Positions 5,175 to 26,357 of a stretch of DNA of 26,357 nt are shown here, one piece after another. A program made the translations under genes and the position numbers. Source of the DNA: a virus. Its lineage: Duplodnaviria; Heunggongvirae; Uroviricota; Caudoviricetes. Each line of letters starts with the position of its first letter. Position 1 is the first letter of the stretch. A model generated the notes under the pieces. The model was not told where the DNA came from. It made no database searches and worked only from the letters and a program-made list of their open reading frames with translations. The DNA lies in the IMG/VR virus record IMGVR_UViG_2645727948_000026, positions 1 through 26,357 of that record. One strand, given 5' to 3'.

Positions 5175-5214
5175 GTGCGTACCGTATCGCCACGTCTTTT
5201 TCGCACACGAATTA

Positions 5215-5300: not shown

Positions 5301-5353
5301 TTTCCACCTCTGGATGGTGAGTTTTCAAAACTTACAACCAAAGAGGCCACCCC

Positions 5354-5584: not shown

Positions 5585-5656
5585 TTCCTGTTCCGGGCCT
5601 TTCCTGCACCTTGCGGCGGGAGGCCTTCGCACATCTGTAGTAAAGAGAATTGCAGC

Positions 5657-6046
5657 ATGATTGACGCTCATGACTTCACAAGATGGGTGCGCACACAGGA
5701 CACCCGTCTGGCTCCCGTTCTTCAGGGATTATTTGATCTCTACATCCGTGGTCGTGACAACAGAGCACGCACCACAAAACCGGAGAATGCAGACACCCTT
5801 TATTTCACAGTAGACGACTGCTACCGCGTGGACTTCACACCACACGGGCTGGCGTTGCACTGCCTGACACCACACGGAGAATCACTGCTGGCGTATTACG
5901 ACTCCCCGACCTCCGTATTTGCGGCAATGCTGGCGCATCGCACTGCTGGCGGGTGTGCCTCGCTGAGTGAATACACCGCTGAATTTAACCGCCTTTCTGC
6001 CCTCTTCTCGCAGGAGTGGCAGCGCGTGACGGGATACCAGCCATGA
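5657..6046 (+). CDS. Early-operon hypothetical protein (129 aa)
   Basis: ORF track; its stop overlaps the likely gpA start (ATGA). Confidence 0.55.
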   Translation: MIDAHDFTRWVRTQDTRLAPVLQGLFDLYIRGRDNRARTTKPENADTLYFTVDDCYRVDFTPHGLALHCLTPHGESLLAYYDSPTSVFAAMLAHRTAGGCASLSEYTAEFNRLSALFSQEWQRVTGYQP

Positions 6047-8959: not shown

Positions 8960-9919
8960 ATGAAAATTTACATCGACGACGGCTCCACCAACATCAAGCT
9001 GGCATGGACTGAGAACGGCGAACGCCGCAACGCCATCAGCCCGAACAGCTTCAAGTCGGAATGGTCTGCGCCGTTCGGTGGCTCGCAGCCTGCTAACTAC
9101 ATGCTTGATGGCGTGCGCTATGGTTTTGATCCGGTCAGCGATCGCTTTGTCCAGACGACCGACACGCAATACCAGTACAGCGATGTGAATGTCATTGCCA
9201 TTCATCACGCGCTGGTCAAATCAGACATCACGCCACAGGAAGTGGATGTGGTTGTTACCCTGCCACTGAGCGAATATTTCGACACAAACGCACAGCCGGA
9301 CATGGCCAACATCAACCGCAAAAAAGCGAACGTCATGCGCCCGGTGGAGTACCAGAACGGCGAAGCATTCACTATCCGTAACGTACGGGTTATGCCTGAA
9401 TCCATTCCGGCTGGCTTTAAAGCACTGGCTGACATGAGTCCGTTTGAATCCCTGCTGATTGTGGATTTGGGCGGAACCACGCTGGATGTGGCAAAGGTTC
9501 AGGGGCAACTGGCAGGTATCAGCCAGGTGTTTTGCGATCCACACGTAGGCGTTTCTCTTATGGCCGATGCCGTACTGTCGGTGATGGCCACTAACGGTAT
9601 GCGCACCAGTCACCACATCGCCAATACCATTATCGAACATCGCCATAATGAAGCCTGGCTGCGCCAGCACATCCACAATGACGCGCATTACGCCAGCCTG
9701 ATGGCGGTTATTCGTGAAAAGGAAGAAACACTGAAACAACGCGTGATCCGCGCGCTGGCGGTTTTTTCGGGTTACGGGCGGGTGATGGTTGTCGGTGGCG
9801 GGGCGGAGATTGTGGCACCCGCTATCCGCGAAGCCTGCGGAGTTAATGCGACTTTCATCGCGGACGGGGTGCCACAGTTTGCTCTGGTTAATGGGCTGTA
9901 CGCAATGGACAAGGAGTAA
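8960..9919 (+). CDS. parM: Actin-like ATPase, ParM/StbA family
   Basis: ORF track. N-terminus MKIYIDDGSTNIKLAW and blocks VMPESIPAG, LLIVDLGGTTLDV, VMVVGGGAE match my recollection of plasmid R1 ParM and the actin-fold phosphate/adenosine motifs. Confidence 0.7.
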   Translation: MKIYIDDGSTNIKLAWTENGERRNAISPNSFKSEWSAPFGGSQPANYMLDGVRYGFDPVSDRFVQTTDTQYQYSDVNVIAIHHALVKSDITPQEVDVVVTLPLSEYFDTNAQPDMANINRKKANVMRPVEYQNGEAFTIRNVRVMPESIPAGFKALADMSPFESLLIVDLGGTTLDVAKVQGQLAGISQVFCDPHVGVSLMADAVLSVMATNGMRTSHHIANTIIEHRHNEAWLRQHIHNDAHYASLMAVIREKEETLKQRVIRALAVFSGYGRVMVVGGGAEIVAPAIREACGVNATFIADGVPQFALVNGLYAMDKE

Positions 9920-9923
9920 ACCA

Positions 9924-10235
9924 ATGACGACACCAACCAGACGGATAAGTTTCTATCTGAAGCCCGCCGCCGTCAAGAACGAAGGAGAAGCATGCGCCTG
10001 GCTGGACAGCCTTACACCAGAAGCCCGCAAAAGCGGCCAACGCGTGGCTTTTCTGGCCGGGCTGGCACTTCTGAAGACGAATCCGGCAGAGGCTTACCGA
10101 CTGGCCGCATGGGCTGATGATGAGATGTTACCTGTGACACAAATCAGCTCAAAAAAGTTTGAAGCACAGTCTGCACCAGTGGCTAAGATAACCAGCCAGA
10201 TGGCTGGGAATATCCGGGCGTTATTTCCTGAGTAA
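9924..10235 (+). CDS. parR: ParR-like small DNA-binding adaptor (103 aa)
   Basis: ORF track 9789..10235 trimmed to ATG 9924 (GGAG RBS, 4 nt after the parM stop). N-terminus RRISFYLKP...LDSL...AFLAGLAL resembles R1 ParR as recalled. Confidence 0.55.
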   Translation: MTTPTRRISFYLKPAAVKNEGEACAWLDSLTPEARKSGQRVAFLAGLALLKTNPAEAYRLAAWADDEMLPVTQISSKKFEAQSAPVAKITSQMAGNIRALFPE

Positions 10236-13016: not shown

Positions 13017-14767
13017 CAGAACTCCATAACCGTGAAACGCTCGTTTTCTCCTTCGCCGCCAATTGGTTCGTTAATGACAGCAAGCATGGTTGCCCACGCA
13101 AGGTCGCCGTGGCTGATCCCCCTCGCGCGGTCCGTTTCGTAAGTGATAAAGCCGCCCGGTGTTTTCACCTTACGCACGGCGTTAAAGGCTGCGACCAGCT
13201 CGCGTTCGGCGCGATCGTATTCCCACCGCCCGGCACGCATTATTTGCAGCATTTTCAGTACCAGCGACCGTTTTGATGACAGCGTGAAGGTGTACGGAAT
13301 AGCAGCAGGGAAAAACCGTTTCACTATCTGATAAACAGCCTCCCCGTTCCCGCCTGTCACATCAATGCCGATGTGTTCCACGTTGTAGCGACACGTGAAC
13401 TCTTCAATGACTCTGGCCTGTTCTTCAAACTCCAGCCCCTGAACGCGTCGCGTCTCCACCGTTCGAAAACGGCCGCCAGGAACAGCCGGAGGAACCACCA
13501 CGGACACAGCGCCGCTGTCGCCGTTTCCACTGCTGCCGTTTGCGTCATACCCAATCCATACCGGACGATTCCCCATCGGGCGGGGAGCAAAAGGTTTCCA
13601 GTCTTTCCAGTCGTCGTATCCGTCAACACCACAGCCAATCAGGATATTCAGGTTAAATGCCGATTCCCCTTCGCGGACAAACTCACACATATAGAGATTG
13701 AGGAACTCGTCTTCGGTGTTTTCATCACGAATTTCATCAATATCGGTGTGTTTCCAGCCGTGATTAACCACATCTTCCAGCGTGACAATTTGCCGCCACG
13801 TCCGGTCAGGGCAGATAAGCCCGTTATGCAGCGTTTTCCAGTCCACAGAAAAACGCTGGCGTTTATGCGAGGCCTTTTTCTCGTTCCAGCGGTCGCCGTT
13901 CCAGTAGGCGTATGCCTCGTGCGTTTCGGTGGATGGCGTGGAGAAGTAGGTGCGCCGCAGTCCGCTGAGGGTTGCCATAGCGCCAGCCACCTTGCGCAGT
14001 TCAGCAAAGCGACTGACCCAGAAAAATTCATCAAAATAAAAATTGCCCGTGTAGGACTGTGCCGTCGCAGCAGAAGTACCAAGAAAATGCAGCTCTGCGC
14101 CGTTGGAGAGGATGATTTTATCGCCCCCTTTCAGCTCCACATCAACTTCAGATGCAGCCTCCTGAATAATGCTTTTAAACTGGAACGCCTGACGACGCGA
14201 CGCAGACAAAAAAATCTGGTTACGCTGGTAAGGTTGCGCCACATCGTCACGCAGCGCCATCAGCAGTGCTTCCTGAGCAAAATACCAGGTCGCCCCAATC
14301 TGTCGGGATTTCAGGACCATCCTGTTACGTATCCCGGCTTCCCTGCAAAGGGTCAGGGAGTCAAACCAGCCCCGCTGATGCCACTCCAGCCTGCTGATGA
14401 TTTTTTCCCGCAGTGCGGCAATCTGTTCCGGCGTGAAATGATTTTTGAGTTTTTTCGCCCGGCCTTTCTTTCCTGCGGCCATCACATCCGGCTGGCCATC
14501 ATGCAGCTTTTTAAGCTGCCGGGTCAGCAGGTCTATTTCCTTGAAGTCACCACCTGTTTTATTCTGTTTTTCAGTAAGCTGGATGAGGCGCGCATCGATG
14601 GACTGCGTGACACGCTGCACGGGTGGCGTTTCATCCCACTGGTCGCGTTTTTTCCACGCATAAATCGTGTTCGGGTTTATTCCCATCAGACGTGATATTT
14701 CTGCGGGCGGATAACCCTGCCAGTAAAGTTGCCGCGCACGCTGGCGCACAAAAGCGTCCTGAATCAT
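13016..14767 (-). CDS. P: Terminase large (ATPase) subunit, P2 gpP-like
   Basis: ORF track (583 aa); N-terminal ARQLYWQGY...IYAWKKRDQWD matches recalled gpP. Confidence 0.9.
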   Translation of the reverse strand: MIQDAFVRQRARQLYWQGYPPAEISRLMGINPNTIYAWKKRDQWDETPPVQRVTQSIDARLIQLTEKQNKTGGDFKEIDLLTRQLKKLHDGQPDVMAAGKKGRAKKLKNHFTPEQIAALREKIISRLEWHQRGWFDSLTLCREAGIRNRMVLKSRQIGATWYFAQEALLMALRDDVAQPYQRNQIFLSASRRQAFQFKSIIQEAASEVDVELKGGDKIILSNGAELHFLGTSAATAQSYTGNFYFDEFFWVSRFAELRKVAGAMATLSGLRRTYFSTPSTETHEAYAYWNGDRWNEKKASHKRQRFSVDWKTLHNGLICPDRTWRQIVTLEDVVNHGWKHTDIDEIRDENTEDEFLNLYMCEFVREGESAFNLNILIGCGVDGYDDWKDWKPFAPRPMGNRPVWIGYDANGSSGNGDSGAVSVVVPPAVPGGRFRTVETRRVQGLEFEEQARVIEEFTCRYNVEHIGIDVTGGNGEAVYQIVKRFFPAAIPYTFTLSSKRSLVLKMLQIMRAGRWEYDRAERELVAAFNAVRKVKTPGGFITYETDRARGISHGDLAWATMLAVINEPIGGEGENERFTVMEF

Positions 14768-14921
14768 TGCTCCCCCTGAGTAATTACAGGAAGATTACCC
14801 GCGCGCGAAACCGTTCTCCTTAACCCCCTGTTCTGACTGTTTTCTTACAACAAAAGCCCTTTGTATCAGCCTGTTACGCTTTGCCATCATGACTGAAGAA
14901 CCAGTCAGAGGGGCAAAAACT
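14768..14921. promoter_or_regulatory. Divergent late-promoter region (P- and O-operon promoters expected)
   Basis: Intergenic region between divergent P and O. No exact TGT-N12-ACA Ogr/Delta site was found by eye, so this is a positional call. Confidence 0.35.
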
Positions 14922-15758
14922 ATGACTAATGAAAAAAAGACATCCCGCAAAAAGTTTCGCGTGGCTGTCTCCGGTGTGACGGCAGACGGGCGCGAAATCA
15001 ACGGCGACATGCTGAAAGCTGCCGCCACCAGTTATAACCCGTCCGTTTATGGTGCACGTGTGAATATTGAGCACATCCTGTCACCACTCCCCGGTAGCGA
15101 GTTTTCCGCTATGGGCGATGTTGTGGGGTTGAGCACCGAAGACATAACCGATGGCCCGCTGGCAGGCCGCACGGCACTGTATGCCGAAATTGAGCCGACC
15201 GCTCGCATGATGTCCCTGCTTAACGATGGTAAAAAAATTTACTCCAGTATTGAGCTGGAACCACAGTCAACCATCACGGGAGGCCCTTACCTGCGCGGGC
15301 TGGCAATGACCGACACCCCCGCCAGCCTGGGCACGGAACGTCTGGCCTTTGCGGCACAACAACGTATGCAACTGATGACATTCAACTGTCAGCAGGGAGA
15401 CGTGGCGATGTTCACCGCCGCTATGGAGTCAGAACTTATCGAACTCACCGAACAACGTCAGGAAGAAGGCACCCAGTGGTTTAACCGCGTTATGGGGATT
15501 ATTGGCCGTGGCCGCAAAGCGGATGACGCCAGTTTCTCCCGTATTCAGGAAGCGGTGGAAGGTGTCGCAACGTCACAGGCCGATATTATCGACCGCTTTA
15601 ATGCACTGGAAACCCGCCATCAGCAGGACAGCCAGAAAATCACTTCGCTGACCACAGAGCTGACAGCACTGAAGGAAAAGCTGCGCACGCAGGACGGCGA
15701 TCCGCAGAACCGGTTCACCGCAACGGGCGCAGCCTCCGACCAGCTGGCTGACTTCTGA
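14922..15758 (+). CDS. O: Capsid scaffolding protein, P2 gpO-like
   Basis: ORF track 14889..15758; ATG 14922 preferred (GAGGGG RBS; N-terminus KKFRVAVSGVTADGR aligns with recalled gpO start). Confidence 0.85.
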   Translation: MTNEKKTSRKKFRVAVSGVTADGREINGDMLKAAATSYNPSVYGARVNIEHILSPLPGSEFSAMGDVVGLSTEDITDGPLAGRTALYAEIEPTARMMSLLNDGKKIYSSIELEPQSTITGGPYLRGLAMTDTPASLGTERLAFAAQQRMQLMTFNCQQGDVAMFTAAMESELIELTEQRQEEGTQWFNRVMGIIGRGRKADDASFSRIQEAVEGVATSQADIIDRFNALETRHQQDSQKITSLTTELTALKEKLRTQDGDPQNRFTATGAASDQLADF

Positions 15759-15781
15759 TAAGACAAAGGAGCAAATTTTTT

Positions 15782-16834
15782 ATGAATCTGGTGATGTCAG
15801 ATAATGCCCGTAACAAGCTGGGCTGCTACATGACGCGACAGGCGTCGATTAACAATATCCCGGTTTCTGGGCTGGTATCGCGATTTACCGTGGAACCCTC
15901 GGTGCAGCAGCGTTTTGAAAACGCCTCAAAGGATAGCACCGAACTTACAAAAAAAATTAACGTGATCGGTGTGACCGACCAGAAAGGCGAAAAAGTCCTC
16001 ATGGACACCACCGGGCCGATTGCGCGCACAAATACCAGTTATGACGGCACAGATCGCCGCAACCCGATTAACGCTGTCGACCTGAAGTCCCGTCAGTACC
16101 AGTGTGAGCAGGTGAACTACGACACGTTTATTTCGTATCCGCAGCTTGATGCCTGGGCGGCGCACAATGACTTCCAGACCCGCATCAGCGCACAGATTGC
16201 CCGACAGGTGGCGCTTGACCGCATCATGATCGGCTTTAACGGCACGTCACACGCGGAAAAATCCAACTTCAGCACCAACAAGCTGCTTCAGGACGTTAAC
16301 GTGGGGTGGCTGGAGCACATCAGAACCAATGCCAGCGCGCGCGTAATGAATGACGTGACGCTGACCTCCCGCAACATGGACAACACCGTGGCGCACGCGG
16401 GTGAGTATGCGAACGCTGATGCACTGGTTCAGGACGCACGCTCATCCCTGCTGGATGAATGGCACAAGGAAGCTGACGACCTCGTGGTGATTATGGGGCG
16501 CAACCTGTTTAACTCGCTGCGTCTGCCCGTGCTGAACAGCATCAGCGGCCAGAATCCCAATGCGGAATTACTCGCCGGACAGCTCATCCTGTCATCGCGC
16601 ACCATTGGCGGGCTGGGTGTGTTCCTTGCGCCGTTCTTCCCGGATGCAACGATGCTGATCACCTCGTTCAACAACCTGTCGATTTACTGGCAGAATGGTT
16701 CAATGCGTCGTCTGATGAAAGACGAACCGGAATACAACCGCATCGCCACCTACCAGTCCATCAATGACGCTTATGTCGTTGAAGACTATGGCAAGTGCGC
16801 GATGGTCACTGGCCTGAAGTTCGCCGACAGCTAA
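15782..16834 (+). CDS. N: Major capsid protein, P2 gpN-like
   Basis: ORF track (350 aa); size and position between O and M. Confidence 0.85.
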   Translation: MNLVMSDNARNKLGCYMTRQASINNIPVSGLVSRFTVEPSVQQRFENASKDSTELTKKINVIGVTDQKGEKVLMDTTGPIARTNTSYDGTDRRNPINAVDLKSRQYQCEQVNYDTFISYPQLDAWAAHNDFQTRISAQIARQVALDRIMIGFNGTSHAEKSNFSTNKLLQDVNVGWLEHIRTNASARVMNDVTLTSRNMDNTVAHAGEYANADALVQDARSSLLDEWHKEADDLVVIMGRNLFNSLRLPVLNSISGQNPNAELLAGQLILSSRTIGGLGVFLAPFFPDATMLITSFNNLSIYWQNGSMRRLMKDEPEYNRIATYQSINDAYVVEDYGKCAMVTGLKFADS

Positions 16835-16844
16835 TCAACTCACA

Positions 16845-16861
16845 GCGGGCATCATGCCCGC
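16845..16861 (+). other. Stem-loop between N and M (no U-run)
   Basis: GCGGGCA-TCA-TGCCCGC; possible processing or stability element. Confidence 0.3.
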
Positions 16862-16879
16862 CTGTAACGGAGAGAAAAA

Positions 16880-17680
16880 ATGATTACTCCTGCACAGCAA
16901 CACTGGCAGAACGTGATGGCACAGCGCGCAGGCCGGGCGAACGAAGGCGTGGACCACGCCGCGCGTACCGCGCATGAAGAGGTGCTGTATCGTCTGCGTC
17001 TGGCACAGGCCCGGCTTAAGGGCGTACAGGCCAGAAGCGCGAAAGCCGCCATCAAAAAAGAGTTGTTGCCGGACTTTTCCGGCTGGATTGAGGGAACGCT
17101 GGAGGCTGACGGCGGGCAGCAGGATGAAGTGATTGCCACGCTGATGGTGTGGGCGATTGACTGCGGCGATCTTCCGCTGGCGTTGCGTATTGGTGCGTAT
17201 GTGGTCCGTCATAACCTCATTATGCCGGATAACTTTGGCCGTACTGCTGCCACAGTGCTGACCGAAGAAATCTGCAACCCGGTACTGACGCAGGCCGGGA
17301 CGGATGCCGACGCGGATTTGTCCGCCTTTATCGAACCACTGGATACCCTCCGGGAGATTGTCACCGACCAGGACATGCCGGACGAAGTGCGCGCCAAATT
17401 ATGCAAGGCGTGCGCCTTTGCCCGTCGTGGCCTGAGTGATGCGGACAGCATGGCCCTGTCACTGAAGCTGCTGCGCGAAGCAATGCACCTGAACCCGAAT
17501 GCAGGTGTGAAACGCGAGATTGCAACCCTTTCCCGCGCCCTGAAAAAAGCCGATTCCGCAGCCGAACCAGAAGACGCCAGCGCACAGCAGGCGCAGGACG
17601 AAAGCAGCAAAAGTAAAAAGACAACGCGGAAGCCTGCAACACGAAAAACCACCGCGACGCAGAAGGCGAAGCGCGGTTAA
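16880..17680 (+). CDS. M: Terminase small (endonuclease) subunit, P2 gpM-like
   Basis: ORF track (266 aa); MPDEVRAKL block and basic C-terminal tail as in gpM. Confidence 0.85.
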   Translation: MITPAQQHWQNVMAQRAGRANEGVDHAARTAHEEVLYRLRLAQARLKGVQARSAKAAIKKELLPDFSGWIEGTLEADGGQQDEVIATLMVWAIDCGDLPLALRIGAYVVRHNLIMPDNFGRTAATVLTEEICNPVLTQAGTDADADLSAFIEPLDTLREIVTDQDMPDEVRAKLCKACAFARRGLSDADSMALSLKLLREAMHLNPNAGVKREIATLSRALKKADSAAEPEDASAQQAQDESSKSKKTTRKPATRKTTATQKAKRG

Positions 17681-17697
17681 CGACTGACCCCGTCAGC

Positions 17698-17768
17698 GGG
17701 CGGCGTGCGCGGTGTTCCGGTTTGACTCCGTGACCGTTTACACCGCGCACCCACCGCCCGATTTTTTT
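17698..17768 (+). terminator. Long imperfect hairpin plus T7 run between M and L (attenuator or terminator)
   Basis: GGGCGGCGTGCGCGGTG (17698-17714) pairs with CACCGCGCAC-CCACCGCCC (17741-17759); followed by TTTTTTT (17762-17768). Confidence 0.5.
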
Positions 17769-17782
17769 CAGGAGTGAACCCC

Positions 17783-18277
17783 ATGAGTATGGTTGCCAGA
17801 ACCAACCCCGGCCCCGCAGAGGACGACATCACCGATACCGATGATGGTGATACCCGTATTTCAGCGGGTGCATTCTGGCCGGATATTGTGCTGCGTGAGC
17901 TGCGTCTGGCGGTACGACTGCCGGGCCGTGTGACCACCTCCCGTCTGCTGCATACCGCCACCGGGGCTGTGGCACATGTTACCCGCGAGCTGGAAGCATG
18001 GCAGCAGGAACAGCAGGCGGCTGGCCATCAGACGCTGGCCGATGTTCCGGCACCCGTAATTAACGGAGAAAGTGTCAATCTCTGGCACTGGCGCAATGCG
18101 GTTTACACCGCCACACGCGCCCTGATTCTGGAGCGTTACCGCGATGCGGACACAACGGACAAGGGCGACCGCCGGGCGGACGCACTGGATATACAGACAT
18201 CGGATTTGTGGCGTGATGTGAGCTGGGCCATCTCTGACATTCTGTGCCGTCCGCGAATCTTTGCGGAGTTGTGCTGA
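17783..18277 (+). CDS. L: Head completion protein, P2 gpL-like
   Basis: ORF track 17774..18277 (GTG); ATG 17783 with GGAG RBS preferred. C-terminal ERYR...DLWRDV...RPR matches gpL. Confidence 0.8.
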   Translation: MSMVARTNPGPAEDDITDTDDGDTRISAGAFWPDIVLRELRLAVRLPGRVTTSRLLHTATGAVAHVTRELEAWQQEQQAAGHQTLADVPAPVINGESVNLWHWRNAVYTATRALILERYRDADTTDKGDRRADALDIQTSDLWRDVSWAISDILCRPRIFAELC

Positions 18278-18477
18278 TGAAAGTAAAGGCACTGGAAGGC
18301 GACACCGTGGATTCGCTCTGTTTCCGGTACTACGGCACTACGCAGGGCGTCACCGAAAAGGTGCTGGATGCCAACCCCGGACTCTGTCAGCAGGTATTTC
18401 TGGACGCCGGGCAGGAAGTGGAGATGCCGGAGCCGGAGAAGAAGAAACGAGAAATGATTCCGTTGTGGGGGGAGTAG
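18277..18477 (+). CDS. X: Tail protein X, P2 gpX-like (66 aa)
   Basis: ORF track 18244..18477 trimmed to MKVKALEGDTVDSLCFRYYG (TGATG overlap with the L stop); resembles recalled gpX. Confidence 0.75.
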   Translation: MKVKALEGDTVDSLCFRYYGTTQGVTEKVLDANPGLCQQVFLDAGQEVEMPEPEKKKREMIPLWGE

Positions 18478-18479
18478 CA

Positions 18480-18803
18480 GTGAGCACCATTCAAACAGGG
18501 ATCACAGAGCAGGTTATTGCATGGCTCTTTGACCACCTGCCAACGGTGTATGCAGTAGGCGCGGCGGTCAGCATTTCCGCGCTGATGAGTCTTTATGACG
18601 GACGAACACTGGTTCAGACCGTAACGGGATCGCTGGCGTGCGGCGTTCTTGCCATGGCCGTGGCCGGGTCGTTGCGCTTCTTCGGTTTTCCTGAAGATGC
18701 CGTGACGTTTATCGGCGCATCAATCGGTTTTATGGGGGCAGAGAAAGCACGCGACAAGGTTATTGCGGCCTTTAATCGCAGGGTGAAGGAGAAGGACGAA
18801 TGA
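18480..18803 (+). CDS. Holin (about 107 aa, three predicted TM segments)
   Basis: Part of ORF track 18261..18803; GTG start after GGGGGGAG. Hydrophobic segments and position upstream of the endolysin. Confidence 0.6.
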   Translation: MSTIQTGITEQVIAWLFDHLPTVYAVGAAVSISALMSLYDGRTLVQTVTGSLACGVLAMAVAGSLRFFGFPEDAVTFIGASIGFMGAEKARDKVIAAFNRRVKEKDE

Positions 18804-19192
18804 GCAACACATTTAAATTCAGCAGCCGGAGCGAAAAGAATTTGCAGGGCGTAAATCCTGATCTGGTGAAAGTGACCCGACGGGCACTGGAAATCTCGGA
18901 AGTGGATTTTGGTATCACCGAAGGGTTGCGCAGCCGTTACCGCCAGAAGCAACTGGTGGCCACGGGTAAGAGCCAGACCATGAACAGCCGCCACCTTACG
19001 GGGCATGCCGTGGATGTTGTGGCTTATATCGGCAGCCAGGTGTCATGGGAATGGTCGCTGTACGAAAAAATCGCAGCAGCATTCAGACAGGCCAGCCGGG
19101 AACTGAATATTCCGGTGGAATGGGGCGGCGACTGGAAGACCCTGAAAGACGGACCGCATTTTCAGTTACCACACGGAGCCTATCCGGCATGA
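18800..19192 (+). CDS. Endolysin, peptidase M15-type (L-alanyl-D-glutamate peptidase-like)
   Basis: ORF track (130 aa); SRHLTGHAVD and C-terminal PHFQLPHG zinc-ligand motifs. Confidence 0.7.
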   Translation: MSNTFKFSSRSEKNLQGVNPDLVKVTRRALEISEVDFGITEGLRSRYRQKQLVATGKSQTMNSRHLTGHAVDVVAYIGSQVSWEWSLYEKIAAAFRQASRELNIPVEWGGDWKTLKDGPHFQLPHGAYPA

Positions 19193-19596
19193 AGCTCTGG
19201 CCCACGCTGGGTGTCGCTTTCCTTCTGATTGCCGCATGGGGAACATCCATACGTCTGTCGTGGTCGCTGGGCCGGGAGAACGCCAGAAACGAAGCGCAGG
19301 CCAGCACCCTGAAAAGTACCGTCGACACCCTGAATATCATCAGCACCGGGGTACAGGATATGCAGCAGGTGCTGGCGCAACTCCGCGTGGAAAATCAGCA
19401 ACGCAATCAGGACGGAGAAGCCAGACGTGAACAGCTACGCAACGATATTGCAAAAGATGAATGCGCCCACGCTTTGTCTGATGCTCGTTTTACTGACAGG
19501 TTGCGCAGGCACGCAGAACGCGCCACGGCCAGCGCCGTCAGTCCGGCTTATACCGCAGACGCTGACCATACCGGTAACGCCTCCCCCCTTCCCTGA
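19189..19596 (+). CDS. i-spanin (Rz/LysB-like)
   Basis: ORF track 19045..19596 trimmed to MKLWPTLGVAFLLIAAWG (N-terminal TM, then coiled-coil region); ATGA overlap with the endolysin stop. Confidence 0.65.
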   Translation: MKLWPTLGVAFLLIAAWGTSIRLSWSLGRENARNEAQASTLKSTVDTLNIISTGVQDMQQVLAQLRVENQQRNQDGEARREQLRNDIAKDECAHALSDARFTDRLRRHAERATASAVSPAYTADADHTGNASPLP

Positions 19597-19747
19597 CACT
19601 CCCACATGGGGAAATCTCGGTATATGGGGCGACCGCCTTCTGGATGCACTGGAAACCTGTAACGCGGATAAACGGGCCATTGAATTACTGGAACAGCGCA
19701 GACTGCAACGACTGAACAACGAGGACAACAACCATGCTGAAAACTGA
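19457..19747 (+). CDS. o-spanin lipoprotein (Rz1/LysC-like), overlapping the i-spanin in another frame
   Basis: ORF track 19427..19747; ATG 19457 gives MNAPTLCLMLVLLTGC lipobox and a proline-rich mature region. Confidence 0.6.
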   Translation: MNAPTLCLMLVLLTGCAGTQNAPRPAPSVRLIPQTLTIPVTPPPFPDTPTWGNLGIWGDRLLDALETCNADKRAIELLEQRRLQRLNNEDNNHAEN

Positions 19748-20201
19748 TTCCCTGCGTGAAGCCATGACCCGTTCATGCCGATGGTGTCAGGCCAACCCGG
19801 AAAAATTCACCATTTTCGTGGAGAGCGGCAACATTGAAACGACCGGAGAAACGCCCTCGTTTGTTTACCGCTATCAGATGGTGATGTTTGTCATGGATTA
19901 CGCCGGGGAGCTGGACGACCTCACGCTGCCGCTACTGGCGTGGTTATCCGAAAATCAGCCACAGTTGTTGCTCAATCCGGAGCGTAATCAGGACATCAAA
20001 TTCTCCGCCGTTATCAATGACGATGACAGCGCCGATCTCCTGTTTACGCTCCCCCTGCGGGAACGCGTTCGCATTACGCGCAGCAGTCAGGGGACACCGC
20101 AGGCAGAGCACCTGCCGGAGCCAAAACCCCGTCTGCCATCTTCCGAAGGCGACTGGTCGCATATATTCCAGGATGTGACGTGGGGTGAAAGCGATGGATA
20201 A
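19734..20201 (+). CDS. R: Tail completion protein, P2 gpR-like
   Basis: ORF track (155 aa, same length as P2 R); position after the lysis genes. Confidence 0.75.
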   Translation: MLKTDSLREAMTRSCRWCQANPEKFTIFVESGNIETTGETPSFVYRYQMVMFVMDYAGELDDLTLPLLAWLSENQPQLLLNPERNQDIKFSAVINDDDSADLLFTLPLRERVRITRSSQGTPQAEHLPEPKPRLPSSEGDWSHIFQDVTWGESDG

Positions 20202-20829
20202 GGCATTCACCCGTGTGGATGAAACCTTTGAGGCCATCCGCGACAGCCTGAATCAGCAGGCCATCAATAACATCGCCAGAAAGCTGGCACAGGATTTACG
20301 CCGCGCCCAGCAGGCGCGCATCCGGTCACAGAAAGCGCCGGACGGGACCGCATGGACACCACGCAGACGCCGCGTAACCCGGATACAGGAGCGCATTCGC
20401 TTTATCTGGAATAACGAAGCACGCACGCTGAAAAACTGGCATCACGACACGGGGAAATACGGGCGAACCATTACCGGGTGGGATGAGGATAAAAACAATA
20501 TCCGCACGTTTTACCGGGATGACATCGACCGTTTTCTGGAAATACGCACCCGGCGCATCAACCAGGACAGCACAAAGCGCGTCCCCATGTTCGTAAAACT
20601 GCGCACCGCCCGCTACCTGAAAGCCCGTGCAGATGCTTCCGGTGTGACGGTGGGTTACAGCGGCGTGGCCGCACGTATTGCACGCGTTCATCAGTTCGGT
20701 GAGCGCGATCAGGTTGCGCCGGGCATTTTCACCGATTACCCGGTACGTGAGCTGCTGGGTATCAGCCAGGCAGATGAGCGCCTGATTTATAACACGGTGC
20801 TGGGCCGGATTGCGGAGGCTGTACGGTGA
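20194..20829 (+). CDS. S: Tail completion / virion morphogenesis protein, P2 gpS-like (longer than P2 S)
   Basis: ORF track 20185..20829 (GTG); ATG at 20194. Called by position between R and V. Confidence 0.6.
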   Translation: MDKAFTRVDETFEAIRDSLNQQAINNIARKLAQDLRRAQQARIRSQKAPDGTAWTPRRRRVTRIQERIRFIWNNEARTLKNWHHDTGKYGRTITGWDEDKNNIRTFYRDDIDRFLEIRTRRINQDSTKRVPMFVKLRTARYLKARADASGVTVGYSGVAARIARVHQFGERDQVAPGIFTDYPVRELLGISQADERLIYNTVLGRIAEAVR

Positions 20830-21407
20830 GCGCAGAACTCATGCGACTGCTGAGCAACATCATCCGTACCGGGATCATCTCTGAAGTTGATGAGGAATCC
20901 TGGTGCGTGCGCGTTCGCAGCGGCGAACTGGAAACAGGCTGGCTGCGCTGGAACACCACGCGCGCGGGAGCCTTCAATGTGTGGCTGCCGCCATCACCAG
21001 GCGAACAGGTGGTAATTGCCTGCATTGGCGGCAACCCGGAAACCGCCATGATAATTGGCAGCCTGTGGAGTGATGCCAGTCCGGCCCCCGGCAAAAGCCT
21101 GAAAGAAATCGTGATCAGCGCGCCGGATGGCGCGGTGTTCCGCTACGACACGGACGCAGGCGCACTGAGCGCCAGCGGCATGAAAACAGCCACCCTGCAG
21201 GCATCCGTCAGCGTGACACTGGATACGCCCGTCGTGGAATGCACAGACCTTCTGAGAACAGCGACGCTTGACGTCACAAAAGGGGGAAAGATGAGCGGCA
21301 ATATCACGCACAGCGGCGGCGATTTCACCTCAAACGGCATCACAGTGCATACGCATAAGCACGGTGGCGTTAAAGGTGGCAGCGATTCGACAGGAGGCCC
21401 GCAGTGA
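20826..21407 (+). CDS. V: Baseplate spike, P2 gpV-like
   Basis: ORF track (193 aa), GTG start overlapping the S stop. NIIRTGII and C-terminal HTHKH..GG blocks match recalled gpV. Confidence 0.85.
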   Translation: MSAELMRLLSNIIRTGIISEVDEESWCVRVRSGELETGWLRWNTTRAGAFNVWLPPSPGEQVVIACIGGNPETAMIIGSLWSDASPAPGKSLKEIVISAPDGAVFRYDTDAGALSASGMKTATLQASVSVTLDTPVVECTDLLRTATLDVTKGGKMSGNITHSGGDFTSNGITVHTHKHGGVKGGSDSTGGPQ

Positions 21408-21754
21408 CAACCCGCTACACAGGAATGAATCCGGACGGGACGGGAAACCTGAACGATATGGAGCACCTGAAACAGTCAGTCAGGGACATCCTGATCACCC
21501 CGCTGGCAAGCCGGGTTATGCGACGGGAATATGGCAGCCTTGTGCCTGATTTGATTGACGAACCCATGAATAACACAACTCGTCTGCAATGCATGAGTGC
21601 TGCCGTGATTGCGCTGACACGATGGGAACCCCGCATTGCCCTGGACGCCATCGACGTTGTCTGGAAAGCGGGAGGCCGCGCCGGGGTGACGCTGTCGGGC
21701 ACTGTCATGCAGACCATGCAGAATGTTGAGTTAACCATCACGCTGAAGGAGTAA
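21404..21754 (+). CDS. W: Baseplate wedge protein, P2 gpW / gp25-like
   Basis: ORF track (116 aa); MTTRYTGMN...SRVMRREYGS closely matches recalled gpW; GGAGG RBS. Confidence 0.9.
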   Translation: MTTRYTGMNPDGTGNLNDMEHLKQSVRDILITPLASRVMRREYGSLVPDLIDEPMNNTTRLQCMSAAVIALTRWEPRIALDAIDVVWKAGGRAGVTLSGTVMQTMQNVELTITLKE

Positions 21755-21757
21755 ATC

Positions 21758-22654
21758 ATGCCCGCCGTTGACCTTTCCCAGTTACCGGAACCCGCCATCA
21801 TCGCGGAGCCTGACTTTGAGGCAATTCTGGCTGACACAAAGGCCATGATGATTGCGGCTTATCCCGCCGAACAGCGTGAAGCCGTCTCCGCCGCGCTGGA
21901 GCTGGAATCGGAACCCCTGAACGTTATCGCCCAGACAACAGCGTTTCGTGAAATGCTGTTACGCCAGCGGGTCAATGAGGGGGCACACGCCTGCATGTTA
22001 AGCCACAGCGCCGGGACAGACCTGGACAACCTCGCGGGCAATATGAACACAAAGCGCCTGACCATCACTCCGGCAACGGATACCACCGACGCAGTGATGG
22101 AAAGTGACACCTCGCTGAGACTGCGGGCACAGCGGGCGTACGATGGCCTGAGTGTTGCTGGCCCGTCAGGTGCATACGAGTATTTTGCCCGCAGCGCCAG
22201 CGGTCTGGTGCGTGATGCGCGGGCTATCAGTCCGTCTCCGGCAAATGTGACGGTTTCCATCCTGTCCACTGAAGGCGACGGCACAGCAACGGAGGCGTTG
22301 CTTAATACCGTTCGCGCCGTTCTGAATGCAGAGGATACCCGCCCGGTGGCCGACCGCCTGACCGTACAGAGCGCCAGAATCGTGACATGGCGGCTGAATG
22401 CAAAACTGTACTTTTACCCCGGCCCGGAATCCGAACCTATTCTGGCCGCGGCTGAATCGTCGTTCAGGAAGTGGCTGGCTGAGCAGGGGCTTATCGGTCA
22501 GGACGTGGCGTTGTCCGCCATTGCTGCCGCACTGCATGTGCACGGTGTGCAACGCGTGGAGATAATCGAACCCACACAGAATATGACCATCAGCGACATA
22601 CAGGCGGCGCGCTGTGAGTCATTCACCATCAGCGAAGGTGGACGCAATGAGTAA
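21758..22654 (+). CDS. J: Baseplate protein, P2 gpJ-like
   Basis: ORF track (298 aa); size and position. Confidence 0.8.
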   Translation: MPAVDLSQLPEPAIIAEPDFEAILADTKAMMIAAYPAEQREAVSAALELESEPLNVIAQTTAFREMLLRQRVNEGAHACMLSHSAGTDLDNLAGNMNTKRLTITPATDTTDAVMESDTSLRLRAQRAYDGLSVAGPSGAYEYFARSASGLVRDARAISPSPANVTVSILSTEGDGTATEALLNTVRAVLNAEDTRPVADRLTVQSARIVTWRLNAKLYFYPGPESEPILAAAESSFRKWLAEQGLIGQDVALSAIAAALHVHGVQRVEIIEPTQNMTISDIQAARCESFTISEGGRNE

Positions 22655-23255
22655 TTCACTGTTACCACCATCAGCCAGCAATTTCATGCGTTGTGCCGAA
22701 GCCGTCGGAACACGCATTACAGACATTCCGGTAGACCTCAACACGCTGTGGTCGCCGGACACCTGCCCGGTGCATCTGCTGCCTTATCTCGCCTGGGCGT
22801 TTTCCGTTGACCGCTGGGATCGCAACTGGCCGGAAGAGACAAAGCGACAGGTAATTCGTGATGCATGGCTGATACACCGACACAAAGGGACCATCAGCGC
22901 ACTGCGAAGAGCCGTGGAGCCTCTCGGCTACCTGATTGAAGTAAAGGAGTGGTGGCAACTCAACGAGGAGCCAGGAACATTTCGCATTGTTGTCGGAGTA
23001 CTTGATCAGGGCATCACCGATGAAATGTATCAGGAACTTGAGCGCCTTATTGCGGATGCAAAACCAGTAAGTCGCCATCTGACGGGGCTGGCGATCAGCC
23101 TGAGTGTGAACGGAAAGATTTTCGTTGGTACGGGATGCTATCACGGCGATGCCCTGACGGTTTATCCCTACACCCCGGAGTCCATTATTGTCGAAGGGGA
23201 TTATTTCCCTGCCCCGGCCATTCATTTAATTGATAATCTGAGAGTAAACGCATGA
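22647..23255 (+). CDS. I: Baseplate protein, P2 gpI-like
   Basis: ORF track 22614..23255 trimmed to ATG 22647, which overlaps the J stop. Confidence 0.75.
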   Translation: MSNSLLPPSASNFMRCAEAVGTRITDIPVDLNTLWSPDTCPVHLLPYLAWAFSVDRWDRNWPEETKRQVIRDAWLIHRHKGTISALRRAVEPLGYLIEVKEWWQLNEEPGTFRIVVGVLDQGITDEMYQELERLIADAKPVSRHLTGLAISLSVNGKIFVGTGCYHGDALTVYPYTPESIIVEGDYFPAPAIHLIDNLRVNA

Positions 23256-24850
23256 CAGTGAAATACTACGCCATTCTGACTAATCAGGGCGCAGCACGAC
23301 TGGCTAACGCGACGATGCTCGGCAGTAAGCTGAATCTGACGCAAATGGCCGTTGGTGATGCAAATGGTGTGTTACCAACACCAGACCCTGCACAAACAAA
23401 ACTGATTAACCAGAAACGCATTGCACCGCTGAATCTTCTGAGTGTTGACCCTAACAATCAGAGCCAGATTATTGCGGAGCAAATCATCCCTGAAAACGAG
23501 GGAGGATTCTGGATCCGTGAGATTGGTCTTTATGATGATGAAGGTGCACTCATTGCGGTGGCAAACTGCCCGGAAACGTACAAACCGCAGTTGCAGGAAG
23601 GCAGTGGACGCACCCAGACTATCCGCATGATTCTGGTTGTCACGAACACCGAAGCCATCACGCTGAAAATCGACCCGTCTGTGGTTCTGGCAACCCGCAA
23701 ATATGTGGATGATAAAATATCAGAGCACGAACAGTCACGACGTCACCCGGACGCCTCGCTGACCGTAAAAGGTTTTACTCAGTTAAGCAGTGCAATTAAC
23801 AGTGAATCAGAAACACTGGCCGCAACACCGAAAGCGGTTAAGGCTGCATATGACCTGGCTAACGGGAAATATACCGCCCAGAACGCCACCACTACACAAA
23901 AAGGGATTGTTCAGCTCAGTAGCGCCACGAACAGCACGTCTGAAACGCTGGCAGCGACACCAAAAGCTGTTAAGGCGGTAATGGATGAAACGAACAAGAA
24001 AGCACCATTAAACAGCCCGGCACTGACCGGAACGCCAACAACACCAACAGCGCCACAGGGGACTAATAGTACCCAGATCGCAAGCACGGCTTTCGTTATG
24101 GCTGCGATTGCCGCACTTGTAGATTCGTCACCTGATGCACTGAACACGCTGAACGAACTGGCTGCAGCGCTGGGCAATGACCCGAATTTTGCGACCACCA
24201 TGACTAACGCGCTTGCGGGTAAGCAACCGAAGGATGCCACCCTGACGGCGCTGGCGGAGCTTGCTACATCAGCAGATAAACTCCCATATTTTACAGGGGC
24301 AGATCGTGCCGCGTTAACCGCGTTGACAAGTGTTGGACGTGCCATTCTTGGTAAAACCAGCACTCAGGGAGTTCTTGATTACCTTGGTTTGGGAGAAGGT
24401 TCGGCATTACCCGTTGGTGTGCCTGTTCCGTGGCCTTCAGCCACACCGCCTACTGGCTGGCTGAAATGCAACGGTGCGGCTTTTTCTGCTGAAGAATACC
24501 CGGAACTGGCAAAGGTTTATCCGACAAATAAATTGCCGGATTTACGCGGTGAATTTATTCGTGGCTGGGATGACGGACGTGGTGTGGATGCCGGGCGACA
24601 ATTATTATCTTCACAGGGGGATGCAATAAGAAATATTGAGGGATTCGCAGATGGCGGGATCGGTATGTCTTTTGATGCAATCAGAGGGGCTTTTTATGAT
24701 GCAGGAACACGATCTGCGAGAATGCCGAATAACACAACTGATATAGGCAAAACCGATGACCTTGGATTCGACGCCTCTCGTGTCGTGCCAACAGCTAATG
24801 AAAACCGTCCACGTAACATCGCCTTTAATTATATTGTGAGGGCTGCATAA
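23252..24850 (+). CDS. H: Tail fibre protein, P2 gpH-like (conserved N-terminus, variable C-terminus)
   Basis: ORF track (532 aa); N-terminal MTVKYYAILTNQGAARLANA; duplicated SETLAATPKAVKA motif typical of tail fibres. Confidence 0.85.
   Translation: MTVKYYAILTNQGAARLANATMLGSKLNLTQMAVGDANGVLPTPDPAQTKLINQKRIAPLNLLSVDPNNQSQIIAEQIIPENEGGFWIREIGLYDDEGALIAVANCPETYKPQLQEGSGRTQTIRMILVVTNTEAITLKIDPSVVLATRKYVDDKISEHEQSRRHPDASLTVKGFTQLSSAINSESETLAATPKAVKAAYDLANGKYTAQNATTTQKGIVQLSSATNSTSETLAATPKAVKAVMDETNKKAPLNSPALTGTPTTPTAPQGTNSTQIASTAFVMAAIAALVDSSPDALNTLNELAAALGNDPNFATTMTNALAGKQPKDATLTALAELATSADKLPYFTGADRAALTALTSVGRAILGKTSTQGVLDYLGLGEGSALPVGVPVPWPSATPPTGWLKCNGAAFSAEEYPELAKVYPTNKLPDLRGEFIRGWDDGRGVDAGRQLLSSQGDAIRNIEGFADGGIGMSFDAIRGAFYDAGTRSARMPNNTTDIGKTDDLGFDASRVVPTANENRPRNIAFNYIVRAA
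24372..24397. promoter_or_regulatory. Candidate 26-bp DNA-invertase crossover site (hix/gix/cix-like) inside H
   Basis: TTCTTGATTACC-TT-GGTTTGGGAGAA compared with recalled hixL TTCTTGAAAACC-AA-GGTTTTTGATAA; lies at the conserved-to-variable junction of H. Confidence 0.5.
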
Positions 24851-25443
24851 TGAAACCTGTTTTTGATGAAAATGGGCTGGCTACAGTGCCGGGTGATATG
24901 CGTTGTTATTATTATGATGCAGTAACGTCTGAATATACGGGCTGGTCTGATGAATATATTAATACTGGCGTAAGTATGCCCGTTTGTTCCACTGGTATTG
25001 ACCCGGGCGAATACATTCCGGGAAGAGTGGCAGTATTTACGGGTAAGGGATGGAGCCATGAAGAAGACCATCGCAATGAGACCGTTTACTCAACTGAAAA
25101 TGGCGCAGCTGTTACAGTGGATTATATCGGTGCCATCAAAGACGGTTATGTCACGCTTTCACCGTTAACGCCATACGATAAATGGGATGGTGAGAAATGG
25201 GTGACGGATACCGAGGCACAGCATAGCGCCGCAGTAGAAGCTGCAGAAGCACAGCGCCAGTCGCTGATTGATGCTGCAATGGCTTCCATCAGTCTGATTC
25301 AACTGAAATTACAGGCCGGGCGGAAGCTGACGCAGCCAGAAAACACCCGACTTAACGCTGTGCTGGATTATATTGACGCGGTGACGGCAACAGATACCAG
25401 CACAGCGCCGGACGTCATCTGGCCTGAACTGCCGGAGGCGTAG
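24850..25443 (+). CDS. G: Tail fibre assembly chaperone (gpG/Tfa-like)
   Basis: ORF track (197 aa); starts at the H stop; C-terminal TSTAPDVIWPELPEA motif. Confidence 0.8.
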   Translation: MKPVFDENGLATVPGDMRCYYYDAVTSEYTGWSDEYINTGVSMPVCSTGIDPGEYIPGRVAVFTGKGWSHEEDHRNETVYSTENGAAVTVDYIGAIKDGYVTLSPLTPYDKWDGEKWVTDTEAQHSAAVEAAEAQRQSLIDAAMASISLIQLKLQAGRKLTQPENTRLNAVLDYIDAVTATDTSTAPDVIWPELPEA

Positions 25444-25858
25444 GCCATTCAATATCTGGCGCACCGGAAGTATCGACCAGTTCCAGTGCGTCCAGATAAT
25501 CCAGCCACAAATTATATTGCGCCAGTTCCTCACCTTTCAGGCGACCAATCGCCGCTTTACCAGGCCATTGCTTACTGTATATGTATTCGTTGACCTGATT
25601 AATCAATTGCTGCTTTTCCAGTTCGGCTGCAGCAATTTGTTCCTCATGAGTTGGCGGTGGAATTTCCCCCCAGGTGGGAAGGCCATCATCACCCGCGATG
25701 CGTACTTTCCCTTGCAACGTTCTGTCTTCAATAAATTCCAGGTAAGTGTCATATGTCACTTCGACAACATCAGCAAGTTCCCATCCGGCCTGTTCATATT
25801 TCGCCACATCATTTTTAGCGAAAAAACTATTTTTTGAGGCGCTATAAACCATTTCCAT
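25415..25858 (-). CDS. Second tail fibre assembly chaperone, inverted orientation
   Basis: ORF track (147 aa); C-terminal TSGAPDIEWPTPP parallels the plus-strand Tfa; convergent with it. Confidence 0.75.
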   Translation of the reverse strand: MEMVYSASKNSFFAKNDVAKYEQAGWELADVVEVTYDTYLEFIEDRTLQGKVRIAGDDGLPTWGEIPPPTHEEQIAAAELEKQQLINQVNEYIYSKQWPGKAAIGRLKGEELAQYNLWLDYLDALELVDTSGAPDIEWPTPPAVQAR

Positions 25859-25859
25859 A

Positions 25860-26357
25860 TTAATACCCTACTGCAATATAAAAAACTGATTCACCAGCGT
25901 CCTGAGAACCTACCCCCGGAACGCCAGACCAGGTTTTGTTAATGAATGCAAAACTGGTATTACTCAGATCAGATGCTCTGTACATCGGGCTGAACATCCA
26001 GTAGTTGGCTCCATATGTTTGTCCGAAAACAATGCCATAGCACTGATTTGTAAATGGCGTAGAAAATAATTTTCCACCAGTACCAGCGATAGTCCCGAAT
26101 CGCATCTGGAACCCATTCGGGAAATTAATTCCGCCTGCCGGTGAAGACCAGTAAGACATATCAGGTATTTGCCCAGCACTATTTCCCACGTTTTTTGTTG
26201 CAACGGTTCCTAACCCAAGATTAGCTCTTGCGTCAGATTTATTTGTTAACTCATAAAGATTATTTGCCTTTTGAAGTGCTCCTATTATGCGTAAATCATC
26301 ACCAGCGGCAACGGTTCCGACTATCGTGCCCACATCCCTTTTCGCCGCTTCTCCTAA
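25860..26357 (-). CDS. Alternative tail fibre C-terminal segment (5' end lies beyond the window)
   Basis: ORF track 25860..26333 (GTG); the frame stays open to the window edge. Gly/Ser-rich tail-fibre tip composition, immediately upstream of the inverted Tfa. Confidence 0.65.
   Translation of the reverse strand, partial: LGEAAKRDVGTIVGTVAAGDDLRIIGALQKANNLYELTNKSDARANLGLGTVATKNVGNSAGQIPDMSYWSSPAGGINFPNGFQMRFGTIAGTGGKLFSTPFTNQCYGIVFGQTYGANYWMFSPMYRASDLSNTSFAFINKTWSGVPGVGSQDAGESVFYIAVGY

Follow-up and report, generated by a model that had tools for sequence, protein, structure and literature searches.

Invertible segments of the Din family (Hin, Gin, Cin and Pin) are bounded by two inverted 26-bp crossover sites, each made of two imperfect 12-bp half-sites around a 2-bp core that the two sites have in common. 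The corresponding invertase is a serine recombinase of about 190 residues, with an N-terminal Resolvase domain that carries the catalytic serine and a C-terminal HTH_7 domain, and its gene adjoins the segment. A recombinational enhancer with two Fis sites is contained, in cis, in the 5' part of that gene, and systems of this family depend on Fis and negative supercoiling. Tail-fibre switches of this kind are already known from the Mu G segment, the P1 C segment, the e14 P segment and the P2-like prophages of EPEC, and the locus described here adds no new mechanism to them. In the P2-like prophages of EPEC E2348/69, coexisting orientations of the fibre locus were found by sequencing and PCR, and inversion of the e14 P segment was demonstrated in the same way (Goldberg et al. 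2014, PMC4272514). The published inverted repeat of the e14 P segment is TTGGTTTGGGAGAAGG, and Fin of the P2-like Salmonella prophage Fels-2 is a Din-family invertase that can act in trans on a related segment (PMC12529663).

The stretch of DNA analysed here, referred to as the window, is 26,357 nt long. All P2 structural genes are present across the window and its sister loci, and the fibre gene H lies in a full late morphogenesis operon, V-W-J-I-H, upstream of the segment; the element is a P2-like E. coli prophage encoding a complete-looking myovirus. The right end of the window very probably belongs to a Pin-type invertible tail-fibre cassette, and its description as an ordinary example of a well-known switch is well supported. 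The features are as follows.

23252–24850, plus strand: fibre gene H, 532 aa, with Pfam domains Phage_tail_fib, Phage_fiber_2 and Collar
23252–24383, plus strand: constant part of H up to the crossover core, outside the invertible segment, with Phage_tail_fib and Phage_fiber_2
24372–24397, plus strand: left crossover site, pix-type, with outer half TTCTTGATTACC, core TT (24384–24385) and inner half GGTTTGGGAGAA
24386–24850, plus strand: tip A, the variable C-terminus of H in the window orientation, Pfam Collar, StfE-like
24850–25443, plus strand: Tfa-A, chaperone for tip A, Pfam Caudo_TAP
25415–25858, minus strand: Tfa-B, chaperone for tip B, Pfam Caudo_TAP
25860–26348, minus strand: tip B, the alternative fibre C-terminus, with an ORF that runs to the window edge, PHROG 1396
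26349–26357, plus strand: first 9 nt of the right crossover site, TTCTCCTAA, cut by the window end

The fibre gene and its two tips

The first-pass annotation had described a plus-strand Tfa followed by a minus-strand Tfa and a different fibre C-terminus reaching the window edge, and had placed a 26-bp site of the crossover family inside H, at the point where the fibre becomes variable. Both descriptions agree with the present results. The ORFs, the Caudo_TAP domains and PHROG 1396 bear out the gene arrangement. The site at 24372–24397 is of the Pin/Gin/Cin type by comparison with those of e14, P1 and Mu, and it separates two very different levels of conservation: residues 1–382 of H share 99.7% identity with H of an O111:H2 prophage, whereas the tip after the site shares only 41%.

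Tip A is 60% identical to e14 StfE, matches PHROG 523 at an E value of 1e-73 and is related to the T4 gp37 tip structure 2XGF. The start codon of Tfa-A overlaps the stop codon of H (TAATG), and its product shows 63.5% identity to e14 TfaE. Tfa-B is 55% identical to e14 TfaP and 32% identical, over 73 aa, to the chaperone U'. The two chaperone genes converge, with their 3' ends overlapping by 29 nt. Tip B matches PHROG 1396, "tail fiber protein", at an E value of 1e-26 and has a repeat motif in common with the short tail fibre in 9ZD7, while a Pfam search of tip B returned no domain. By their Pfam, PHROG and structure matches, the two tips fall in different fibre-tip families. Each Tfa lies directly downstream of its own tip once the respective orientation is expressed. 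In the window orientation, tip B and Tfa-B are expected to be silent. No start codon of tip B is in frame with the site. Inside the segment, a promoter scan gave five matches against 4.0 expected, which is chance level.

Crossover sites and relation to known segments

For comparison, the sites were taken from the actual records of e14, Mu gix, and P1 cixL and cixR as annotated in NC_005856. The e14 site reads CTCTCGAAAACC TT GGTTTGGGAGAA, and its core and inner half equal those of the left site in the window at all 14 positions; furthermore, window positions 24384–24399 equal the e14 inverted repeat at 16 of 16. An e14-derived pattern, AAACCWWGGTTTGGGAGAA, allowed up to three mismatches, is matched once in the window, against 0.01 matches expected from shuffled sequences. 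In megablast, the matching regions of unrelated elements (E. coli PT62, Klebsiella phages, and phages SKA5 and pro483) start at window positions 24380–24384, no more than 4 nt from the core.

The right site and the invertase had both been expected beyond the window. This holds for the invertase gene, whereas the first 9 nt of the site lie inside. The source contig (L007), JHQV01000098.1 of assembly GCA_001265165.1, shows no differences from the window over 13,106 nt and stops 2 nt past the window end, thus terminating inside the right crossover site. The remaining 17 nt of the site, the invertase and the enhancer region were read from prophages of the type represented by contigs L003 and L005, both in the window orientation, with four to five mismatches to the window over the same 13,106 nt. 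The first-pass annotation had pointed to the right of the window for an inverted partner site and a serine-invertase gene, and both are located there, at L005 13098–13123 and 13179–13778, respectively. The full site reads TTCTCCTAAACC AA CGTTTTCGTTTT in these near-identical loci; it is inverted relative to the left site, and the two cores match as AA and TT. Like the left site, it is pix-type and agrees with the e14 inverted repeat. The sequence common to both sites, in inverted form, amounts to 14 nt with one mismatch, and the right outer half, CGTTTTCGTTTT, resembles the family half-site poorly. A half-site-like match at 26019–26044 was considered as a third site of a shufflon and rejected, as it agrees at 9 of 12 positions, is accompanied by no second half and lies at chance level (about 0.4 expected). 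Only two crossover sites are found in the segment, whereas multiple-inversion systems such as p15B Min and the shufflons have three or more and thereby more than two variants.

The layout of the Mu G and P1 C segments, to which the first-pass annotation had likened the locus, is indeed common to them and the present cassette, but sequence comparison indicates the e14 P segment with Pin as the closest relative, over either of these. Besides the sites, the likeness to e14 extends to the invertase, 83% identical to PinE, which is encoded just outside the segment and reads away from it, and to the gene content, with a StfE-like tip and a TfaE-like chaperone placed opposite a TfaP-like chaperone and a second tip. 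The differences are also clear. The element e14 is a defective lambdoid remnant with a Stf constant part, whereas here a complete-looking P2-like myovirus carries a P2-type H; the segment measures 1797 bp in e14 and about 1.98 kb here; tip B is unrelated to StfP, and the outer half-sites differ.

In the Mu G/Gin and P1 C/Cin systems, as in the present locus, the segment holds two tip-plus-chaperone pairs that face each other, the constant N-terminal part of the fibre is encoded outside it, the inverted sites measure 26 bp, and a serine invertase gene lies next to it. The 5' coding region of that gene contains the enhancer in Mu and P1 and, by homology, a putative one here. The present invertase is 76% identical to Gin. 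In contrast, the Mu and P1 segments measure 3–4.2 kb, the phage families differ, the tips and chaperones (S/U and S'/U') are only weakly related to the present ones, and the core of Mu gix is TC/GA rather than TT/AA. Among P2-like elements, the EPEC E2348/69 loci correspond, by their published description, to the present one in type of element and type of phage, although one of them is a three-site, four-variant locus, whereas two sites are found here. Fin of Fels-2 likewise corresponds by description, as a Din-family invertase on a P2-like prophage. Escherichia phage 500465-2 (Gemsvirus, Peduoviridae) has an annotated DNA invertase and the same order of H, Tfa, Tfa', tip' and invertase, followed by U to sheath on the other strand; it differs in its tip B, which is gp53-like, and its matches cover 44% of the query region.

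Orientation of the segment in prophage copies

Inversion of the segment in silico at the two cores fuses residues 1–382 of H in frame to tip B, giving a 544-aa protein, H', and places the start of Tfa-B 2 nt past the H' stop codon. Exactly this predicted H' exists in NCBI (P0001). Three contigs contain the flipped DNA itself, with 2 mismatches in 5227 nt (L012), 3 in 13,635 (L014) and 0 in 9166 (L015) to the inverted sequence, as opposed to about 1400–1500 mismatches to the un-inverted one. Since flipped DNA and the exact H' are both present in public E. coli assemblies, this prophage exists in both orientations, in nearly identical copies from separate assemblies. The first-pass annotation had proposed inversion, with a single orientation as the outcome that would speak against it; the three flipped contigs and P0001 answer this in favor of inversion. 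In look-ups, nine contigs carried the exact H, and about 12 carried H' or one of its four cluster members of at least 90% identity.

The position of the exchange is also visible at the level of single bases. The two inner half-sites differ by a G/A substitution, which travels with the segment in the flipped contigs; the junction there lies past the outer half and ahead of the inner half's variable base. Two types of left junction result, TTCTTGATTACC-TT-GGTTTGGGAGAA in the native and TTCTTGATTACC-TT-GGTTTAGGAGAA in the flipped form, and both are found in IMG/VR. A second P2-like lineage contains the same cassette in both orientations. Among complete RefSeq E. coli genomes, the native junction is found in 211 of 5426 and the flipped junction with the present tip B in 0; the flipped-junction matches in RefSeq stop 36 nt past the core, after which other, gp53-like tips follow.

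Two arrangements could also arise without site-specific inversion, if prophages exchanged modules or underwent homologous recombination with one another, or through assembly error. E. coli genomes carry the Tfa and tip modules repeatedly, at a median of 2 and a maximum of 12 matching places; a number of contigs are interrupted in the segment or close to it, and transfer of the cassette between unrelated elements is evident. However, flanks and segment are identical bar 0–3 mismatches and orientation alone differs; every breakpoint falls at the core, also that on a contig of 5.05 Mb; and the inverted identity of 14 nt, interrupted by one mismatch, is not long enough for RecA recombination or to mislead an assembler. 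This explanation is therefore considered extremely unlikely. Contig ends were set aside as a sign of a mixed population, being ambiguous because E. coli genomes contain several copies of the Tfa and invertase modules.

A second alternative is a former invertible segment that no longer switches in the present prophage and has left the minus-strand Tfa and tip as a frozen relic. The window itself shows a single orientation and lacks an invertase, the outer half of the right site matches weakly, and decayed versions exist elsewhere, as in E. coli PT62, where the same cassette lies beside a recombinase pseudogene. Against this, both orientations are represented among prophages with 0–5 mismatches to the window, and their junctions coincide with the cores; the invertase of the sister loci is full length and retains its catalytic serine, and tip B and Tfa-B are intact ORFs. 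Furthermore, contig L021 carries a natural quasi-site inversion between H and the invertase gene, crossing at the left core, which indicates recent enzyme activity at that site. A fixed relic is thus very improbable, and an invertible cassette remains the preferred reading of the locus.

A switch of this type accounts for the contig breaks and for the seemingly different fibre proteins of otherwise identical prophages. It also bears on annotation: pipelines enter the presumably silent tip as a separate gene for a "hypothetical protein" or "phage tail protein", and call H or H' depending on the orientation that was sequenced.

Invertase, proposed switch and possible wider role

The serine invertase gene is intact in both L005 and L003 and begins 68 nt after the right core. 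As encoded in L005, the product is 199 aa long and combines a Resolvase with an HTH_7 domain. Its matches to the Gin structures 4M6F and 3UJ3 have E values of about 1e-91 (3e-91 for 4M6F), and the catalytic serine is conserved in a VSTNDQ motif. Basic residues K46, K47 and R50 are present, which we take to correspond to the basic positions 47, 48 and 51 of Hin; these positions, like the Fis-contact residues, are characteristic of enhancer-dependent invertases. The Fis-contact residues of Hin, Q151, R154 and L155 (PMC3798978), are kept as Q-I-A-R-L in an alignment to the Hin DNA-binding domain (1HCR).

Nucleotides 19–90 of the invertase gene are 79% identical to the enhancer annotated in P1 cin, against 69% for nucleotides 91–420. 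Third-position identity in the enhancer-like stretch is raised modestly, and two blocks within the region are nearly invariant across cin, gin, pinE and the present gene. The region starts about 90 nt from the right core, a distance similar to the roughly 100 bp reported for hin. Because of the homology to the P1 cin enhancer and the conserved Fis-contact residues, the mechanism is presumed, as in the rest of the family, to be dependent on Fis and an enhancer. A scan upstream of the invertase revealed no sigma-70-like promoter at the threshold used.

In the proposed switch, the invertase encoded just right of the window would bind as dimers to the two inverted 26-bp sites, cut both at the central TT/AA dinucleotide, turn half of the synapse through 180 degrees and rejoin the ends. 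This exchange would flip the 1.98-kb segment between the site at 24372–24397 and the site that begins at 26349. In the window orientation, the V-W-J-I-H operon would yield H(1–382) joined to tip A, of the StfE-like Collar type, together with Tfa-A; in the flipped orientation, the same promoter would drive the same 382 residues joined in frame to tip B, with Tfa-B next. Through this alternate fusion, virions would bear one of two receptor-binding tips per lysogen lineage, and the swap is predicted to change which bacteria the phage can attach to. A single prophage encoding two predicted receptor specificities matters for the prediction of host range and for delivery vectors based on P2.

The switch might instead, or in addition, serve the lysogen, if a chimeric tip protein blocked the adsorption of other phages as StfE2 does, the chimeric fibre protein that arises from e14 P-segment inversion by PinQ/PinR/PinE (PMC12529663). 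The sites and the cassette are of the e14 type, and inversion of e14 P is reported to block T2 adsorption, with several Pin enzymes acting in trans (PMC12529663); resident Pin enzymes could therefore plausibly flip the present segment as well. On the other hand, the fibre gene belongs to a full late morphogenesis operon, H is expected to be silent in the lysogen, and the promoter signal inside the segment does not exceed chance, so that a benefit of this kind is judged quite unlikely, and a switch of virion tips is favored.

A role of the cassette and its invertase beyond host range, comprising adsorption blocking through H' or the tips and, separately, prophage inactivation or inter-prophage rearrangement driven by quasi-sites, is likewise held to be unlikely. 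For the rearrangement reading, two contigs serve as examples, L021 with its inversion between H and the invertase gene, and L030, a chimera of two invertases.

Downstream of the invertase, the sheath-tube-E-T-U block lies on the opposite strand relative to P2. It was considered as a second, larger invertible block and rejected, as neither a flanking inverted repeat nor a pix-like site accompanies it; the same order is present in phage 500465-2, and the strand reversal is treated as a fixed feature of the lineage.

Gene layout and crossover sites

The window is a P2-like prophage, encoding an integrase, replication gene A, homologues of Q, P, O, N, M and L, lysis genes, and homologues of R, S, V, W, J and I. 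The gene layout described in the first-pass annotation is real, as H, both Tfa genes and the minus-strand tip ORF were all found:

23252-24850, plus strand: H, 532 aa, with Phage_tail_fib, Phage_fiber_2 and Collar domains
24850-25443, plus strand: Tfa chaperone (Tfa-A)
25415-25858, minus strand: second Tfa (Tfa-B)
25860 to the window edge, minus strand: further fibre-tip ORF (tip B)

The convergent Tfa genes share 29 nt at their 3' ends (25415-25443), where each strand encodes the C-terminal residues of one of the two proteins.

The 26-bp site of the Hin/Gin/Cin family claimed within H is confirmed by comparison with reference sites taken from public records (see the table). Its core and inner half are identical to those of the e14 site at 14/14 positions, an e14-derived pattern matches once in the window against 0.01 expected, and the 16-nt e14 inverted repeat (PMC12529663) corresponds to window 24384-24399. 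The P1 record places the annotated crossover at the centre of both cix sites. Judged from sequence comparison, H passes from constant to variable at the left site: the H of an O111:H2 prophage shares 99.7% identity with it over residues 1-382 and 41% over the tip beyond the site. Homology to unrelated elements (E. coli PT62, Klebsiella phages, phages SKA5 and pro483) starts at 24380-24384.

Crossover sites (half-site, core dinucleotide, half-site)
Left site, window 24372-24397: TTCTTGATTACC TT GGTTTGGGAGAA
Right (partner) site, L005 13098-13123: TTCTCCTAAACC AA CGTTTTCGTTTT
e14 (K-12), inside stfP: CTCTCGAAAACC TT GGTTTGGGAGAA
e14 (K-12), upstream of pinE: TTCTCCCAAACC AA CGTTTATGAAAA
Mu gix: TTATCCAAAACC TC GGTTTACAGGAA
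P1 cixL: CAATCCTAAACC TT GGTTTAAGAGAA
P1 cixR: TTCTCTTAAACC AA GGTATTGGATAA

The exact H protein is encoded by nine public contigs, among which L003 and L005 differ from the window at 4-5 positions over 13,106 nt and extend further right. Following these near-identical contigs rightward locates the predicted inverted partner at L005 13098-13123, opposite in orientation to the left site and with a matching core. It had been expected beyond the window; most of it is, and its first 9 nt occupy window 26349-26357, so the window and its source contig are cut within the right site. Window 13252-26357 is matched without a mismatch by the source contig, L007 (GCA_001265165.1), which stops 2 nt beyond the window end, 11 nt into the site. 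Sister contigs L008, L012, L015, L016 and L017 likewise end in or near the segment. The sequenced cultures may have contained both orientations, or the breaks may just come from Tfa and invertase modules being multi-copy.

Inversion in silico and in natural contigs

When L005 was inverted in silico between its two cores, the reading frame of H ran on from residue 382 into the minus-strand tip (...GVLDYLGLGE|AAKRDVG...), giving a 544-aa product, H', with the Tfa-B start 2 nt past its stop codon. A protein search returned an NCBI E. coli protein, P0001 (four cluster relatives), that is full-length and 100% identical to predicted H'. Its contig, L012, shows 2 mismatches over 5227 nt to the in-silico inverted window, versus 1377 to the un-inverted one; inverted L005 shows 3 mismatches over 13,635 nt to L014 and none over 9,166 nt to L015. 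Neither the invertase nor any flanking gene changes place in these flipped contigs. Both orientations, which were looked for, are thus found in separate assemblies, and IMG/VR holds both left-junction types.

The inner half-sites, GGTTTGGGAGAA and GGTTTAGGAGAA, are one base apart, and that base travels with the segment; exchange must therefore take place after the outer half-site but before inner position 6, which fits core cleavage. Taken together, the exact flipped protein, the flipped contigs, this moving base and the finds of both orientations in IMG/VR and in a second P2-like lineage (below) rule out a frozen remnant, homologous recombination and assembly error. Switching would be expected to occur inside a single culture, and the two tips would presumably confer differing host ranges.

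Invertase and putative enhancer

The serine-invertase gene predicted to the right of the window is present in L005, where a 199-aa gene begins 68 nt beyond the right core. Its product carries Resolvase and HTH_7 domains and aligns to the crystal structures of Gin, 4M6F and 3UJ3, at E about 1e-91; it keeps the catalytic-serine motif and shares 83% identity with PinE and 76% with Gin. The source genome itself presumably carries this invertase. Residues Q151, R154 and L155, through which Hin contacts Fis (PMC3798978), are all kept, and the inversion reaction probably depends on Fis. Nucleotides 19-90 of the gene are 79% identical to the annotated P1 cin enhancer, versus 69% further downstream, and contain two blocks nearly invariant among cin, gin, pinE and the 199-aa invertase gene. 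This stretch, starting about 90 nt from the right core (about 100 bp reported for its hin equivalent), is likely, though unproven, to be a recombinational enhancer.

Relatives and rearranged loci

By its sequence the cassette is classed as e14-type: StfE is 60% identical to tip A, TfaE 63.5% to Tfa-A and TfaP 55% to Tfa-B. Tip B is a different fibre tip, with a PHROG 1396 match, a repeat common to the short tail fibre in 9ZD7, and no Pfam domain. It is rare among complete E. coli genomes; the native H/tip-A junction occurs in 211 of 5426. The classified phage 500465-2 (Gemsvirus) has an equal gene order and an annotated DNA invertase, and coexisting orientations were demonstrated by sequencing and PCR in e14 and in two P2-like prophages of EPEC E2348/69 (PMC4272514). 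With these on record, the kind of element is already known, and the present one is a new, well-supported example of known invertible tail-fibre cassettes. Since adsorption blocking is reported for e14 StfE2 (PMC12529663), the cassette might also act as an adsorption blocker in the lysogen, an improbable, non-exclusive role for which the analysis turned up no support.

A second P2-like lineage (L022, L024, L026, L028; sites at 2985 and 4962 in each locus) has an identical cassette, again in either orientation. This lineage differs in baseplate J; its invertase is 190 aa long and its outer half-sites are GGTAATTGAGGA / CGTTTATCTCTC. E. coli PT62 (L001) likewise has the cassette, within an e14-like element where homology begins and ends at the site cores; the crossover sites are therefore also module boundaries for horizontal exchange.

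Contig L021 (GCA_032036435.1, DAPSYP010000011.1), 99.9-100% identical to L005 per aligned piece, carries a natural 2.39-kb inversion between the left site (window 24372-24397) and a quasi-site in the invertase gene, with endpoints 2573-2598 and 4962-4987. The breakpoints are the left-site core in H and an AA dinucleotide in the invertase (TAGCCGAAATGG AA CGTGAATTAATT). As H is cut to 385 aa and the invertase split, this is a self-inflicted dead end. L030 1-7444 (GCA_001267345.1, JHRJ01000008.1) places the same tip-B/Tfa-B/Tfa-A/tip-A cassette between two invertase genes (199 and 190 aa). The locus also contains three pix-like sites and an additional Collar tip, and its tape-measure gene is split. 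Either two P2-like prophages have rearranged with each other here, or the contig is misassembled.

Beyond the window, at L005 13805-19386 (also L002 and L018), U, T, E, tube and sheath are read in the direction opposite that of H and D, inverted relative to P2, where FI, FII, E, T, U and D share one strand. This looks like a fixed lineage trait, as no inverted repeat was found flanking the block and the order in phage 500465-2 is equal. L009 has the P2-like order, with invertase then sheath on the plus strand.

Elsewhere in the window, the interval from replication gene A to the portal gene contains, at 8960-10235 (+), genes for a ParM actin-like segregation protein (StbA_N and ParM domains, E 1e-80) and an StbB-like plasmid stability protein, in a prophage that also bears an integrase. 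In the early region, isrK (64 bits, 5100-5174, +) and C4 antisense RNA (82 bits, 5210-5297, +) both match in Rfam above the gathering score. They lie within or overlap an ORF (5043-5660) that bears an Ash-family domain.
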